This document shows, piece after piece, positions 42,101 through 48,771 of a DNA stretch of 64,000 nt. This DNA is from Escherichia phage vB_EcoM_G2540-3, in the sequence record MK327944.1. One strand, 5' to 3'. The first letter of the stretch is position 1. The number at the start of each line of letters is the position of its first letter. The translations under genes and the position numbers were made by a program. A model generated the notes under the pieces. That model did not search any database and was not told where the DNA came from. It was given only the letters and a program-made list of their open reading frames with translations.

Positions 42101-42831
42101 AAATTTTTCCTCTTTAAAATTCTGCCGTGTTTCCAACCTGGCGGTATAATATCATCTTTACCTATAAGCGTGCATTCACTTCCATTATTAATCCATTTCT
42201 TACCGCGGATTCCTTTATAATCTCTTGGTTTTATTTTGTCAAACTTTGCATCAAGTTGATATGACCATCTAAATCCATAAGCATATTGAAATTTACCCTC
42301 GGCACAATATTTGATATTTGACCCGTTTCCATTAACTGACCGGGACGCTGCCGCAATAGAGTGAAAGGTTTCTATGAAATCCCCATCTAATGAGAATTTA
42401 TGTATTTCTACAGATGGGCACGCATATCTATTCACGTTAGATACATGCTGTTTAGTTTCGTTTTTATGATGCTTGCCTAGCATCCCTTTAGGATGAGGAT
42501 TATTTTTCCAATATTTCTTAAAGAACTCAGAATTAGCTTTAGCAAATAATTTTCTGTGTAAGCTGTACAATCTGTTATTAATTCTATTGCCAGCTTTATC
42601 TGTTGCCATTAACGTTAACGCAGAGGCAAGACCAAAATGGCCTTCATTTATCTTACATAGTAATAGATGAGCTATAAAATGTTCTCTGGCTGTTAATTCA
42701 ACTAAATTTTCCTTATCATCAGAACCTCCCATACATTTAGGGATTATATGATGTGTCTCTTTATATTCTAGTAAAGATTCCCGAGCCTGAGCTCGGGAAA
42801 TTAGGTCGTTATAGATTTTTTGATAATTCAT
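42097..42831 (-). CDS. mobE: HNH homing endonuclease (MobE-like) wedged between nrdA and nrdB
   Basis: 244 aa; ETHHIIPKCMGGSDDKENLVELTAREHFIAH; start overlaps nrdA stop (TAATG), stop overlaps nrdB start (ATGA). Confidence 0.8.
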   Translation of the reverse strand: MNYQKIYNDLISRAQARESLLEYKETHHIIPKCMGGSDDKENLVELTAREHFIAHLLLCKINEGHFGLASALTLMATDKAGNRINNRLYSLHRKLFAKANSEFFKKYWKNNPHPKGMLGKHHKNETKQHVSNVNRYACPSVEIHKFSLDGDFIETFHSIAAASRSVNGNGSNIKYCAEGKFQYAYGFRWSYQLDAKFDKIKPRDYKGIRGKKWINNGSECTLIGKDDIIPPGWKHGRILKRKNL

Positions 42832-45095
42832 TACAATTTACACGCTGCGCAATCATCGGCTTTTGGAGTTTCTATTTCATAATCATCAGTACCAGAACCA
42901 TCGCGGGTATTATGATAATAGAAATTTTTAATGCCATAATACCATCCGTATAGCATGTCATCAATCATTATTGACATTGGAACCTTTCCTTTTGGAAAAA
43001 TCTGTGGGTCATAATATGTATTCGCTGAAGCTGATTGACACACCCATTTCAGCATAATAGCTACCTGCGTAAGATAAGGTTTATTACCTTTCTTAGCTAA
43101 TTTCCACGTATAATCATATAGGTCTATGTTATGCTCAATATTGGGCACGACTTGATTAAAGGAACCCTCTTTTGATTCTTTAACAGAGACTGGTCCACGT
43201 GGAGGCTCGATACCGTTTGTACTGTTAGAAACTTGGGAAGATGACTCACATGGCATAAGTGCTGATAATGTGCTATTACGGATGCCAAAGAGCTTAAGGT
43301 CTTCCCGCAGCGCCGACCAGTCACAAACGTATTTTGGAGCTGCGATTTGGTCAATCTTTTTATTGTACCAGTCGATAGGTAATTCGCCTCGAGACCAACG
43401 AGTGTCTGAATAATATTCGCAAGGTCCTTTTTCTTTGGCGAGCTTAATGGATGCTTTAATGAGTCCATACTGTAATCTCTCAAATAGTTCATGTGTTAAA
43501 TCGTTAGCATCTTCATAAGAAGCAAAGTTACTTGCCAGCCAAGCTGCATAGTTAGTAACACCTACACCAAGGTTTCGACGCTTTTTAGCTTTTTCTGCTT
43601 CAGGAACTGGATATCCTTGGTAATCCAAAAGATTATCAAGAGCACGAACTTGAACTTCTGCTAATTCATTAATTTTATCTTGGTCTTGCCAATCGAAGTT
43701 ATCCAGCACAAATGCAGATAACGTGCACAATCCAATTTCAGCATCAGGACTATTCACATCATTTGTTGGAATAGCAATTTCACAGCACAAGTTACTCTGA
43801 CGAATAGGTGCCTTTTCACGAATAAACGGAGTATAGTTATTCGTATTATCAATGAACTGTACATAAATTCTTGCTGTTCCTGAACGTTCAGTCATGAGCA
43901 ATTCAAATAGTTCACGGGCTTTAATACGCTTTTTACGAATATTAGGGTCTTTTTCTGCTGCTTCGTATAATTCACGGAAACGGTCTTGGTCTTTAAAATA
44001 AGAATAATAAAGCTCTCCACCCATTTCATGTGGACTAAACAAAGTAATGTAATCGTTCTTTCCAAAACGTTCCATCATCAAATCATTCAGCTGGACACCA
44101 TAATCCATATGACGGATACGGTTTTCTTCTACGCCTTTGTTATTTTTCAAAACGAGAAGATTTTCAACTTCCAAATGCCAAATAGGATAATAAGCAGTAG
44201 CAGCGCCGCCACGAATTCCGCCCTGTGAACATGATTTAACAGCAGTCTGAAAATGTTTCCAAAAAGGAATAACACCAGTATGACGCACTTCACCTGTGCC
44301 AATCTTAGAACCTTCGGCACGAATCATACCAACGTTAATGCCGATTCCAGCTCGCTTGGAGATATATTCAACAATTGAAGCAGAAGCTTTGTTGATAGAC
44401 TTCAGCGAATCACCTGCCTCAATAACAACGCATGAACTAAACTGTCGAGTTGGAGTACGACATCCAGCCATAATAGGAGTTGGCAGTGAAATCTGTCGAG
44501 TAGATACTGCTTCATAAAAACGAATAACATGTTTTAATCTGTCAACAGGTTCATCTTGATGCAATGCCATTCCAATAGTCATAAATGCAAACTGCGGAGT
44601 TTCATAAATTTGACCAGTGGTTTTATCTTTAACGAGATATTTTTCTTTTAATTGCATCGCTCCGGAATAAGTAAATTCCATATCCCGCTCGTGCTTAATT
44701 TTTGATTCTAAAAATGTAATTTCTTCTGCAGAATATTTTGACAACAATTCAGGGTCGTATTTACCTTCATTTACACAGTAAGAAATATGGTCAATAAATG
44801 AACGTGGTTCATATTGTCCATAAACATGCTTACGAAGAGCAAACATTAAACAGCGTGCAGCTACATATTGATAATCAGGCTCTTCAACCGAAATAGAATT
44901 CGCAGCAGCCTTAATTACAATGGTTTGAATGTCATCAGTGGTCATTCCATCACGGAGATATGATTTAATATTTTCATATAATTCATAAGGATCTACAGAT
45001 GTTCCTTCAGCTGCCCAAGATAAAACTTTAATAATTTTTTGCGGGTCAAAGCTTTGAGAAACACCACTACTTTTGATAACATTAATTAATTGCAT
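42831..45095 (-). CDS. nrdA: ribonucleotide reductase large subunit NrdA
   Basis: 754 aa; class Ia RNR alpha with ATP-cone N-terminus. Confidence 0.95.
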   Translation of the reverse strand: MQLINVIKSSGVSQSFDPQKIIKVLSWAAEGTSVDPYELYENIKSYLRDGMTTDDIQTIVIKAAANSISVEEPDYQYVAARCLMFALRKHVYGQYEPRSFIDHISYCVNEGKYDPELLSKYSAEEITFLESKIKHERDMEFTYSGAMQLKEKYLVKDKTTGQIYETPQFAFMTIGMALHQDEPVDRLKHVIRFYEAVSTRQISLPTPIMAGCRTPTRQFSSCVVIEAGDSLKSINKASASIVEYISKRAGIGINVGMIRAEGSKIGTGEVRHTGVIPFWKHFQTAVKSCSQGGIRGGAATAYYPIWHLEVENLLVLKNNKGVEENRIRHMDYGVQLNDLMMERFGKNDYITLFSPHEMGGELYYSYFKDQDRFRELYEAAEKDPNIRKKRIKARELFELLMTERSGTARIYVQFIDNTNNYTPFIREKAPIRQSNLCCEIAIPTNDVNSPDAEIGLCTLSAFVLDNFDWQDQDKINELAEVQVRALDNLLDYQGYPVPEAEKAKKRRNLGVGVTNYAAWLASNFASYEDANDLTHELFERLQYGLIKASIKLAKEKGPCEYYSDTRWSRGELPIDWYNKKIDQIAAPKYVCDWSALREDLKLFGIRNSTLSALMPCESSSQVSNSTNGIEPPRGPVSVKESKEGSFNQVVPNIEHNIDLYDYTWKLAKKGNKPYLTQVAIMLKWVCQSASANTYYDPQIFPKGKVPMSIMIDDMLYGWYYGIKNFYYHNTRDGSGTDDYEIETPKADDCAACKL

Positions 45096-45411
45096 AAGTC
45101 CTCAACTTGAAAATCGTCTTTAAACAATCGGTTAACTATATGAGCTATTATATCACCATGACACGGCTTTGGTTTACATGTGCATCCTAGCCTCATTCCA
45201 CGTAAAGGCTCTAAATGTGCTTTAGTTATTTCTCCGGATTTAATTCGACGTATAAAATCTTTTTTGAATAATTCAATGGCAGCCTCCCGGCTGCCAGCAT
45301 CTTTACCGACGTAATTTCCCAAAATGTACCACGGTGAATATTAACATCAAAGTCGGATTTATATTTATTCACTACCTGGCATAGACGGCCCGCGCGGTGA
45401 TAATTCGTCAT
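45086..45411 (-). pseudogene. DUF4326-like gene split by a single-base frameshift in a G-run
   Basis: Frame A from ATG 45411 gives ...FDVNIHRGTFW; frame B continues GNYVGKDAGSREAAIELF...LGCTCKPKPCHGDII; one extra G in ttttggg would fuse them into 108 aa. Confidence 0.45.
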
Positions 45412-45640
45412 ATTGTTTTTCCGTTAAAACAGTAATATCATAGTAACAATCTGAAGAAGTTTTAACTGTAGAAATTTTATTATCAAAATACTCACGAGTC
45501 ATTTTATGAGTATAATATTTTTTGCCATAAATGATAATAGGCTGATTTGGTCCTGGAACTTCTAATTCACTTGGGTTAGGAAGTGTAAAAAGAACTACAC
45601 CAGAAGTATCTTTAAATCGTAAAATCATATATCCTCGCAA
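45365..45640 (-). CDS. hypothetical protein
   Basis: 91-aa ORF between td exon 2 and the DUF4326-like gene. Confidence 0.45.
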
Positions 45641-45651
45641 TTAAATTAAAA

Positions 45652-45963
45652 TTATACCGCCATTTTTCCTTTCAAGACACCGTGGGACTGATAATCTTTG
45701 AGAACGAAATCTTTAGGCCTGAGTTTAAGAACATATTCCAATTGTTCTTTAGTAGAAAGATAACGGAATTTATAAGGCAATCCGCCTATTACCAGTTCAC
45801 AAAGCTCTTTAGGTTCACGACGCAAAATTTCTTTGCACTGTTCTACATGATTCATATAGATATGAGTATTACCACCAGAAAATATCAAATCTCCTGGAGT
45901 AAGATTACACATCTTAGCTACAATATGAACTAACGCAGCATATGATGCAATATTAAACGGTAG
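45652..45963 (-). CDS. td: thymidylate synthase, exon 2
   Basis: LPFNIASYAALVHIVAKMCNL... is the C-terminal part of ThyA; intron ends ...CUGAACAUAAUG immediately before CUACCG. Confidence 0.9.
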   Translation of the reverse strand, partial: LPFNIASYAALVHIVAKMCNLTPGDLIFSGGNTHIYMNHVEQCKEILRREPKELCELVIGGLPYKFRYLSTKEQLEYVLKLRPKDFVLKDYQSHGVLKGKMAV

Positions 45964-46979
45964 CATTATGTTCAGATAAGGTCGTTAATCTTACCCCGGA
46001 ATTATATCCAGCTGCATGTCACCATGCAGAGCAGACTATATCTCCAACTTGTTAAAGCAAGTTGTCTATCGTTTCGAGTCACTTGACCCTACTCCCAAAA
46101 GGGATAGTCGTTAGGCATTTATGTAGAACCAATTCCATTTATCAGATTTTACACGATAAGTAACTAATCCAGACGAAATTTTAAAATGTCTAGCTGCATC
46201 TGCTGCACAATCAAAAATAACCCCATCACATGAAATCTTTTTAATATTACTAGGCTTTTTACCTTTCATCTTTTCTGATATTTTAGATTTAGTTATGTCT
46301 GAATGCTTATGATTAAAGAATGAATTATTTTCACCTGAACGATTTCTGCATTTACTACAAGTATAAGCAGAAGTTTGTATGCGAACACCGCACTTACAAA
46401 ACTTATGGGTTTCTGGATTCCAACGCCCGTTTTTACTTCCGGGTTTACTGTAAAGAGCTTTCCGACCATCAGGTCCAAGTTTAAGCATCTTAGCTTTAAC
46501 AGTTTCAGAACGTTTCTTAATAATTTCTTCTTTTAATGGATGCGTAGAACATGTATCACCAAACGTTGCATCAGCAATATTGTATCCATTAATTTTAGAA
46601 TTAAGCTCTTTAATCCAAAAATTTTCTCGTTCAATAATCAAATCTTTCTCATATGGAATTTCTTCCAAAATAGAACATTCAAACACATTACCATGTTTGT
46701 TAAAAGACCTCTGAAGTTTTATAGAAGAATGGCATCCTTTTTCTAAATCTTTAAAATGCCTCTTCCATCTCTTTTCAAAATCTTTAGCACTTCCTACATA
46801 TACTTTATTGTTTAAAGTATTTTTAATCTGATAAATTCCGCTTTTCATAAATACCTCTTTAAATATAGAAGTATTTATTAAAGGGCAGTCCTACAATTTA
46901 GCACGGGATTGTCTACTAGAGAGGTTCCCCGTTTAGATAGATTACAAGTATAAGTCACCTTATACTCAGGCCTCAATTA
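45964..46979 (-). mobile_element. td group I intron (1016 nt) carrying I-TevI
   Basis: 5' end UAAUUGAGGCCUGAGUAUAAGGUGACUUAUACUUGUAAUCUAUCUAAACGGGGAACC on - strand right after exon 1 ...GGT; 3' end ...GGGGUAAGAUUAACGACCUUAUCUGAACAUAAUG. Confidence 0.9.
46111..46848 (-). CDS. I-TevI: intron-encoded GIY-YIG homing endonuclease I-TevI
   Basis: 245 aa; MKSGIYQIKNTLNNKVYVGSAKDFEKRWKRHFKDL... GIY-YIG domain, C-terminal zinc finger and DNA-binding region. Confidence 0.9.
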   Translation of the reverse strand: MKSGIYQIKNTLNNKVYVGSAKDFEKRWKRHFKDLEKGCHSSIKLQRSFNKHGNVFECSILEEIPYEKDLIIERENFWIKELNSKINGYNIADATFGDTCSTHPLKEEIIKKRSETVKAKMLKLGPDGRKALYSKPGSKNGRWNPETHKFCKCGVRIQTSAYTCSKCRNRSGENNSFFNHKHSDITKSKISEKMKGKKPSNIKKISCDGVIFDCAADAARHFKISSGLVTYRVKSDKWNWFYINA

Positions 46980-47528
46980 ACCCAAGAAAACATCTACTGA
47001 TCGTTGATACCACTGAAGGTCAAGATAACCATTACGCACATTAAACTGATAGAACATATGACAGGGCGGTAATGCCATCTGCTTGAGTTCAGCTGGATTC
47101 CATGCCGACACAATTTGACGTCTATCATTGGGAAATGTTTTAATACGATTAACAACTTCTACAATTTGATCTACACCACCAAAATCACGCCACTGTTTTC
47201 CGTAAATTGGACCAAGTTCACCGCTATGATAACCTAAGTCTTTGGCCTGGTTTTCGTAGTTTTCATCCCAAATTGTTTTTCCTGCAATTAAAGATCCATG
47301 AGTACGTTGACGTAAATCATTTACGTTAGTACTTCCTGATAAGAACCACAATAACTCAGAAATACACGCATTCCAGGCGAGCTTCTTGGTTGTTACTGCA
47401 GGAAAACCTTTAGTTAAATCCCAGCGCAATTTAGTACCGAACAAAGCAATTGTTCCTGTGCCTGTTCGGTCATCAGTTTCATAGCCATTTTCAAAAATGT
47501 CTTTAATTAAATCTTGGTATTGTTTCAT
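46980..47528 (-). CDS. td: thymidylate synthase, exon 1
   Basis: 183 codons MKQYQDLIKDIFENGYETDDRTGTGTIALFG...RSVDVFLG. Confidence 0.9.
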
Positions 47529-47572: not shown

Positions 47573-47932
47573 TCAATACGGTTTAGCATCAAATTTTCTT
47601 TCAATTTCAGGCGTGAAATATAATTCTTTACCGCGTTTGGAAAAGCGACCAATAATATGATAATTATTCTCATCAAACGTAATATTGCCAATATCCATAG
47701 CTTTCAACCAAATATCGATATTTCTGTCAAGCTTTATATCAAAATTCCAATACGGAGAACTATTACCGAAAATACTACAAGCGGATTCAGTGAAACAGCT
47801 GCTATAAATCTTGTCTTTAGGAACTACTAATTGATAGACGCCTTTAATAAACTGAGGACCCTGCCATTTTGGTTGTTTCGCGTCTTTTTCTAATAGAATA
47901 GGGTAATAATTAAAATTCATATTTTCCGCCAC
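47573..47932 (-). CDS. hypothetical protein between frd and td
   Basis: 119-aa ORF; no motif recognised. Confidence 0.5.
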   Translation of the reverse strand: MAENMNFNYYPILLEKDAKQPKWQGPQFIKGVYQLVVPKDKIYSSCFTESACSIFGNSSPYWNFDIKLDRNIDIWLKAMDIGNITFDENNYHIIGRFSKRGKELYFTPEIERKFDAKPY

Positions 47933-48528: not shown

Positions 48529-48771
48529 TCAAAACCCCCTTTCAATAAACCATTCAGTGGCTTTATTAGCATCAAAGAATAATTCTTCATATGTCTTTTC
48601 TTTGTTTTCAAAGACTGTCACACAAACACGTTGACATTCTCCACAGTATTCTTCTGACATGCTCAAAGCGTCAGAAAACATTTCATTAAATTCATTTAAA
48701 TCAGGATTATGCAATGCGTTAAAAATTGCATAATCGAATTCATCATTCATAAATTCAAATACAAAAATCAT
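48529..48771 (-). CDS. hypothetical protein (frd.1-like)
   Basis: 80-aa ORF. Confidence 0.5.
   Translation of the reverse strand: MIFVFEFMNDEFDYAIFNALHNPDLNEFNEMFSDALSMSEEYCGECQRVCVTVFENKEKTYEELFFDANKATEWFIERGF

Follow-up and report, generated by a model that had tools for sequence, protein, structure and literature searches.

A probable natural frameshift allele of nrdA.1, a DUF4326 gene, in Escherichia phage vB_EcoM_G2540-3

Introduction

Frameshifts produced by replication slippage at short homopolymers are described in T-even phages by the Streisinger model, with classical hot spots in the T4 rII and lysozyme genes. The present report concerns a lesion of comparable appearance in nrdA.1, a small gene of the DUF4326 family situated between td and nrdA, within a 64,000-nucleotide (nt) stretch of Escherichia phage vB_EcoM_G2540-3 (sequence record MK327944.1). 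The whole stretch is referred to as the window and all coordinates are counted from its first letter, unless otherwise stated. In T4 (NC_000866) the gene product is deposited under NP_049846 as an 'uncharacterized 12.4 kDa protein in nrdA-td intergenic region'. The T4, T2 and RB3 genes are intact and 327 nt long; in contrast, the G2540-3 copy is one G short of the TTTTGGGG run and is split over two frames.

It has been proposed that T2 and T4 homopolymers of 6 nt or more act as contingency loci, as exemplified by T2 agt and T4 rIIA, and the A6 run of nrdA.1 is included in the tables of such repeats for T2, T4 and T6, where its read-level indel frequency ranges from 0 to 4e-4 (Gomez, Barrick and Waters, 2025 preprint, bioRxiv 10.1101/2025.10.21.683753). 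The DUF4326 family has been placed by Iyer, Burroughs and Aravind in the rhodanese-phosphatase superfamily, occurs fused to Macro, NADAR and SLOG domains, and is predicted to act on the terminal phosphates of ADP-ribose derivatives (PMC9503650, PMC7824862). From this literature, NrdA.1 is predicted to have a role in the processing of phosphates on ADP-ribose-derived molecules.

Results and Discussion

Two overlapping frames constitute one disrupted nrdA.1 gene

The elements of the split gene are the following.

45226..45411, minus strand: frame A, the 5' fragment of nrdA.1, 61 amino acids (aa), ATG at 45411, stop TAA at 45228-45226 (from the list of open reading frames, ORFs)
45086..45322, minus strand: frame B, the 3' fragment of nrdA.1, 78 aa, stop TAA at 45088-45086 (from the ORF list and Pfam)
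45318..45324, minus strand: T4G3 run, TTTT at 45324-45321 and GGG at 45320-45318, the site of the 1-nt deletion (from alignments and the list of indels relative to RB3)

A first-pass annotation of the window had proposed that the two overlapping ORFs belong to a single DUF4326-type protein and that one additional G in the run would fuse them into 108 aa. The coordinates were confirmed, and both proposals were borne out by profile search and by comparison with relatives. Frame B, whose product reads (M)GNYVGKDAGSREAAIELFKK...LGCTCKPKPCHGDII... and includes NrdA.1 residues 32-108 with the GCTCKPKPCHGD motif, matches on its own the Pfam DUF4326 profile (PF14216, gathering threshold 25 bits, length 82) at 57.3 bits over profile positions 23-81 of 82. 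Conceptual repair by one G raises the score to 77.5 bits (E=1.3e-21) and extends the match to positions 2-81. Thus, frame A, which contributes profile positions 2-22 once fused to frame B, supplies the N-terminal portion of the domain that frame B lacks, and the resemblance to DUF4326 is not due to chance. Codons 1-31 of frame A are authentic NrdA.1, identical to the intact protein of relatives, and are followed by 30 out-of-frame codons. The 108-aa protein obtained when the run at 45320-45318 receives the extra G is identical to that encoded on 295 contigs (RB3, HY01, Shfl2 and others), gives 100% tblastn matches among deposited phages and is approximately 95% identical to T4 NrdA.1. In addition, the repaired protein contains every one of the 27 residues that are invariant in the family and preserves both conserved motifs that were tested, the N-terminal C..NKYxSDFDxNIxRGTxWGN and the C-terminal GCTCxPxxCHG.

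The position of the lesion is defined by alignment with the orthologs of RB3, AR1, P922 and T4_ev240, in which the only indel lies in the G-run, G4 in the relatives and G3 in the window. The relatives read TTTTGGGGAAA, with the complete T4G4 run at ORF nt 88-95, while the window reads TTTTGGGAAA, with TTTTGGG; the allele, here termed G3, consists of the loss of one base from the G4 run at ORF nt 92-95. T4, T2, RB3 and approximately 480 further Tequatrovirus records on deposit have TTTTGGGG at this position. No single uninterrupted nrdA.1 ORF is found in the window, as the 1-nt deletion at 45318-45320 splits the gene. The corresponding gene is annotated as one 327-nt, 108-aa ORF overlapping nrdA.2 and nrdA in T4, RB3, AR1 and the sister isolate G2540, and the same open frame is annotated from a later start (288 nt) in P922 and T4_ev240. 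All 60 of the tblastn matches sampled were single-piece NrdA.1 proteins, and more than 95% of approximately 490 relatives encode NrdA.1 in one frame; the two-frame arrangement, which if shared by relatives would have contradicted the first-pass annotation, is therefore not conserved. The order td, nrdA.2, nrdA.1, nrdA matches that of other Tequatrovirus genomes. The locus is a disrupted copy of a gene of the nrdA.1 family. The exact 78-aa product of frame B from G2540-3 is deposited as QBO65640.1, is found in NCBI only from vB_EcoM_G2540-3, and is carried by the depositors as a hypothetical protein, an annotation that should read disrupted nrdA.1.

Consequence of the frameshift

An alignment of 44 family sequences contains 27 invariant residues, of which 14 form the N-terminal motif C11…N15-K16-Y17-x-S19-D20-x-D22-x-N24-I25-x-R27-G28-T29-x-x-G32-N33 and 13 surround the C-terminal motif G76-C77-T78-C79-x-P81-x-x-C84-H85-G86. 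The shift is located between W31 and G32, inside the most conserved motif (…RGTxW|GN…), with 12 invariant residues upstream and 15 downstream. This results in a 61-aa product that keeps 12 of these residues and loses 15, and in a 78-aa fragment that lacks the same 12. A break at this position is expected to abolish function, and the G3 allele would be null or nearly so, as judged from residue conservation.

Replication slippage is the most likely origin of the 1-nt deletion in the TTTTGGGG run. Ribosomes that initiate at the normal ATG would incorporate 31 correct and 30 out-of-frame residues before reaching a stop 131 nt upstream of nrdA, and the C-terminal 77 residues, with the conserved Cys/His motif, would be left without a credible start. 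In the intact gene, translation from the nrdA.1 start ends 7 nt after the nrdA ATG, whereas here it ends 131 nt before it, which would abolish whatever translational coupling to nrdA might exist; a GAGGA sequence precedes nrdA itself. Most likely, the nrdA.1 copy of this phage is a natural pseudogene, the intact gene being accessory and dispensable.

Distribution of the G3 allele

The frame-B TTG is in frame only with G3 and a look-up of the 78-aa product consequently recovers carriers of the same frameshift. The exact product was found in five contigs from independent samples (ERZ28624691, ERZ27232894, SRR21977586, SRR30884459 and SRR8960398), two of them ENA metagenome assemblies and three SRA-derived assemblies, and the DNA of all five is G3. 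The flanking sequences, upstream and downstream alike, vary among these contigs and resemble those of intact genomes about as much as they resemble one another. Similarly, the flanks of the window differ from the nearest intact genome by 3 nt upstream and 11 nt downstream, and from the nearest G3 carrier by 5 and 13 nt, respectively. G3 is found on five distinct flanking backgrounds, which could reflect either recombination of a single old allele or recurrent mutation.

Several observations weigh against a genuine null allele. With a 68/69-nt context, exact matches among deposited phages numbered 0 of 488 for G3 and 264 of 488 for G4. With a 42-nt context, G3 was matched exactly in none of the 492 other deposited phage records, 484 of which were one difference away, as G4 would give, the other eight having a different lesion (the HY03 type described below). 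Exact 25/26-mers in IMG/VR gave no match for G3 and five for G4, and a variable-gap pattern run against metagenome contigs gave nine matches, all G4 and none G3. The expected loss of function is derived from conservation, and the downstream frame is perfectly intact. The latter point is uninformative: the frame lies in a block that is near-invariant in all relatives, and its integrity therefore says nothing about continued use.

Sequencing error, recoding and residual function as alternatives

The first-pass annotation had left three causes of the split open, namely a homopolymer sequencing error, a genuine frameshift, and ribosomal or transcriptional slippage; the genuine frameshift is favoured by the present data, error is unlikely and slippage is essentially rejected. 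Were the missing G a sequencing or consensus error in the deposited assembly, nrdA.1 of the phage would really be intact. The lesion does sit in a homopolymer, the allele is absent from the other deposited records as noted above, and the source study used PacBio RSII (with HGAP) for some phages and MiSeq for others, with the platform of each phage not given in the paper or its supplements. MK327944 (168,654 bp, from pig manure) is reported at approximately 410x coverage (PMC6563267), a depth that speaks against a consensus error, and the affected run is just 4 nt long. Base-by-base comparison with RB3 over approximately 60 kb revealed the nrdA.1 deletion as the only clean frameshift in a conserved gene, all other isolated 1-nt indels falling outside annotated genes or within patches that are divergent or compensated. 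An artefact would be expected to be unique to one assembly and to be accompanied by other homopolymer frameshifts in that assembly, and neither was observed. Error is unlikely because the same allele is present in five independent assemblies on different haplotypes and no other clean frameshift occurs in the approximately 60 kb compared. A rare allele that demonstrably exists in nature explains G3 much better than an error striking the same base, and we consider it most likely that G3 is a genuine natural null allele (G4 to G3) of nrdA.1.

Genuine lesions of this type could still be compatible with NrdA.1 activity if the protein were recoded or if its fragments were functional. Programmed -1 ribosomal frameshifting or transcriptional slippage would allow full-length NrdA.1 to be made from the G3 template, and the layout has features in common with such sites: frame B is -1 relative to frame A, the shift point is the T4G3 run, and a stable hairpin of 8 bp follows it. 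However, the zero-frame codons are ACA UUU UGG GAA, which contain no X XXY YYZ heptamer; UUUUGGG is present but out of phase, and a -1 slip would leave the tRNAs mismatched on re-pairing. The distance from the run to the only stable hairpin is 22 nt rather than 5-9 nt, and the fold z-scores are non-significant (-1.47 for 116 nt and +0.17 for 291 nt). Transcriptional slippage is known from A/T runs of about 9 nt or more, and the T4 and G3 runs are far shorter. Thus, phase, hairpin spacing and the single-frame organization of nearly all relatives argue strongly against the G-run as a recoding site, an explanation to which we attach next to no probability. Activity of the 78-aa C-terminal fragment, or of both fragments together, would in turn require expression of frame B, for which the deletion itself brings a TTG start in frame (TTG GGA AAT). 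This fragment keeps its DUF4326 match at 57 bits and its overlap with the nrdA start, and the other frameshift alleles of the gene also leave an ORF with the Cys/His motif. Inspection of the sequence upstream of the TTG, nevertheless, revealed no Shine-Dalgarno-like element, 12 of the 27 invariant residues are absent, including the NKYxSDFDxNIxRGT motif, and an intact downstream frame is to be expected anyway in a block that is near-invariant in all genomes. A functional frameshifted product is thus very improbable, and a natural null allele is retained as the preferred explanation.

Other disrupted alleles of nrdA.1

A family search retrieved unusual short members of NrdA.1, the lesions of which were verified in DNA with the exception of ECO07P4, for which the protein sequence only was used. 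The disrupted alleles, together with two further elements of nrdA.1 to which they relate, are as follows.

G3: -1 in the G4 run, ORF nt 92-95; the window and five contigs
A7: +A in the A6 run, ORF nt 148-153; five metagenome/SRA contigs, and exact in 10 of 489 deposited records
+G: GG to GGG at ORF nt 129-130 (45284-45283; GGGAGG to GGGAGGG); four SRA-derived contigs representing two haplotypes
HY03 type: ACATTT-TGGGGAAA-TTACGT to ACATTT-AGAGCCT-TTACGT, net -1, in the same T/G run; eight records, corresponding to five phages
ECO07P4: C-terminal frameshift, deduced from protein sequence only; one phage
45260..45265, minus strand: A6 run of nrdA.1 (ORF nt 148-153 of the intact gene), a second frameshift hot spot, A7 in relatives
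45277..45296, minus strand: 8-bp G+C hairpin UGGCAGCC-GGGA-GGCUGCCA within the nrdA.1 coding sequence (from RNA folding)

A7 is a second natural frameshift allele of nrdA.1 and is more frequent than G3; its deposited carriers include Lutter, in which nrdA.1 is annotated as two ORFs, and the MZ2340xx series. The +G insertion, which was found in no deposited isolate, adjoins the loop of the coding-region hairpin at 45277-45296. The loop and stem junction of this hairpin contain GGAG, the core motif cut by T4 RegB. The HY03 type is carried by HY03, SG1, pSe_SNUABM_01, ELT1 and JEP6, and the replacing segment is an exact copy of a quasi-repeat located approximately 105 nt downstream in nrdA.1. The two quasi-repeats are ACATTT..TTACGT at the G-run (45327-45309) and ACATTTAGAGCCTTTACGT downstream (45218-45200), the site in the analysed HY03 sequence being 1585-1603 of that sequence. 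This looks like a templated mutation, in which the upstream copy would have been overwritten by downstream sequence. Overall, nrdA.1 is disrupted in at least 18 of approximately 490 deposited records, roughly 4%, the window not being counted. The same search applied to nrdA.2 as a rough control (87 aa, also with an A6 run) gave 12 clusters and no homopolymer frameshift variant.

DUF4326 proteins that start at the WGN motif in two distant phages, the Yersinia phage TG1 and a second one with the sequence L039, were suspected to be frameshifted and were rejected, their ORFs being open upstream and an internal ATG having been called. In both sequences (1135-1440 and 1135-1446 of the respective TG1 and L039 sequences) the annotated start is an internal ATG positioned just before the (F/W)GN motif, while the ORFs remain open for approximately 22 codons further upstream and encode an NKYxSDFD motif; the deposited starts are probably wrong. 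A separate observation concerns TB37 (OZ035850), in which a 79-bp tandem duplication spans the nrdA.1/nrdA junction (590-750 of the sequence analysed). There nrdA.1 is intact and a 30-aa stub of the nrdA N-terminus precedes the real nrdA, an arrangement that may be real or an assembly artefact.

A near-invariant nucleotide block surrounds the lesions

The 3' portion of the gene belongs to an unusually conserved segment.

45055..45330, minus strand: near-invariant nucleotide block (from diversity, record identity and a five-genome scan)

The block extends for 276 nt, comprising the 3' two-thirds of nrdA.1 together with 41 nt from the start of nrdA, with the G-run indel at its 5' edge. It is at least 99% identical to the window in 488 of 511 matching records, the corresponding figure for the adjacent nrdA.2 block being 18 of 496, and its nucleotide diversity (pi) is approximately 0.002 as against 0.03-0.05 in the flanks. 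Comparison with G2540 revealed no substitution in the block, although the surrounding region is 94.5% identical; G2540 is a different phage at this level of identity and is not near-isogenic with G2540-3. In a five-genome scan of the 64-kb window the block ranks within the most conserved 2.4% of 276-nt windows, level with the portal, prohead and capsid genes, uvsY and gene 31. The block is thus exceptional yet not unique. Its RNA fold is not unusually stable (z = +0.17). A promoter and terminator scan gave weak sigma-70-like matches only and no terminator, leaving the invariant block unaccounted for, and nothing beyond a sub-threshold chance match to a CRISPR repeat was returned by Rfam for 44700-45800.

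The presence of frameshift alleles inside so conserved a block is odd and might reflect a recent sweep, a function at the nucleotide level, or selection for loss. Taken alone, the G2540-3 lesion is unremarkable, a natural pseudogene allele of an accessory phage gene; the loss of a widely conserved gene in culturable phages indicates that nrdA.1 is dispensable. Several frameshift alleles in a highly conserved block, and none in its neighbour, raise the possibility that loss of a predicted ADP-ribose-related enzyme is sometimes advantageous. A stronger and rather doubtful proposal is that nrdA.1 operates as a natural on/off switch, in which several sites of its first half that are prone to slippage or template switching (TTTTGGGG, GG and A6) would repeatedly inactivate the predicted enzyme, the 'off' state being favoured on hosts in which the protein is costly or sensed by a defence system. 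If true, this would account for the different frameshift alleles that a few percent of wild Tequatrovirus genomes carry in a near-invariant block, and for their absence from nrdA.2. The natural null alleles present in available isolates (G3, A7 and HY03 type) are ready material for finding the phenotype of nrdA.1.

Neighbouring genes

The genes that accompany nrdA.1 in the window are the following.

46977..47528, minus strand: td exon 1 (47528..46977 in reading direction)
46111..46848, minus strand: I-TevI intron ORF (46848..46111 in reading direction)
45652..45966, minus strand: td exon 2 (45966..45652 in reading direction)
45365..45628, minus strand: nrdA.2, DUF5496, 87 aa, ATG at 45628 (Pfam PF17600, 198 bits; named nrdA.2 in T4, RB3 and AR1)
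42831..45095, minus strand: nrdA, large subunit of ribonucleotide reductase, 754 aa, ATG at 45095 (from the ORF list and the annotation of relatives)

The start of nrdA.1 overlaps the upstream nrdA.2 by 47 nt, and at the other end the nrdA ATG at 45095 lies 10 nt inside the 3' end of frame B, such that the frame B stop overlaps the nrdA start. Further upstream, a 119-aa ORF with a GTG start is located at 47573-47932 on the minus strand, between frd and td exon 1; RB3 and G2540 annotate an ORF of 348 nt at this place, and T4 is without a gene between frd and td. A small ORF upstream of frd (48529-48771, minus strand) has a run near 48535 that is C5 on the plus strand (G5 in the coding sense) as compared with C4 in RB3. 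This alters the C-terminus of the small ORF, which is 80 aa here and 81 aa in RB3, and the overlap of its stop with the frd start is gone.

Genomic association of intact DUF4326 proteins

Homologs of DUF4326 were found in 1,966 phage records, typically adjoining ribonucleotide-reductase genes. This adjacency suggests a functional link to nucleotide metabolism, which is not obviously explained by the ADP-ribose hypothesis. A search of solved structures with the NrdA.1 sequence gave nothing significant. Stand-alone DUF4326 genes were also noted beside nrdA, nrdB/nrdF and nrdG across many phage groups that are not related to one another, among them the T4-like phages infecting Klebsiella, Acinetobacter and Aeromonas, the Vi01-like phages, and jumbo phages, for example RaK2.

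Comparison with known systems

The closest described counterpart is T4 nrdA.1 itself, which occupies the same locus and displays the same overlaps with its neighbours. The DUF4326 domains of viral NAD+/ADP-ribose conflict systems belong to the same Pfam family; in contrast to these, the nrdA.1 domain is stand-alone, unfused and located beside ribonucleotide-reductase genes. Programmed -1 sites such as E. coli dnaX and the phage tail-chaperone G/GT likewise present two overlapping frames of one protein family, but the nrdA.1 run is without a slippery heptamer in the right phase and without a correctly spaced stimulator, and the two-frame arrangement is not conserved. The lesion resembles the Streisinger hot spots in that a single base is lost from a run in a T4-type genome, with relatives also showing A6 to A7, and differs from laboratory slippage mutants in that the nrdA.1 alleles are natural, originating from field isolates and metagenomes. 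As in the contingency loci of Gomez et al., a homopolymer indel is expected to switch off a phage accessory gene; the G-run, however, at 4 nt (3 nt here), is below the 6-nt criterion of those authors, which the A6 run meets. The nrdA.1 copy of G2540-3 is thus most probably a natural frameshift pseudogene allele of the textbook slippage type, and neither a recoding site nor a demonstrated contingency locus.

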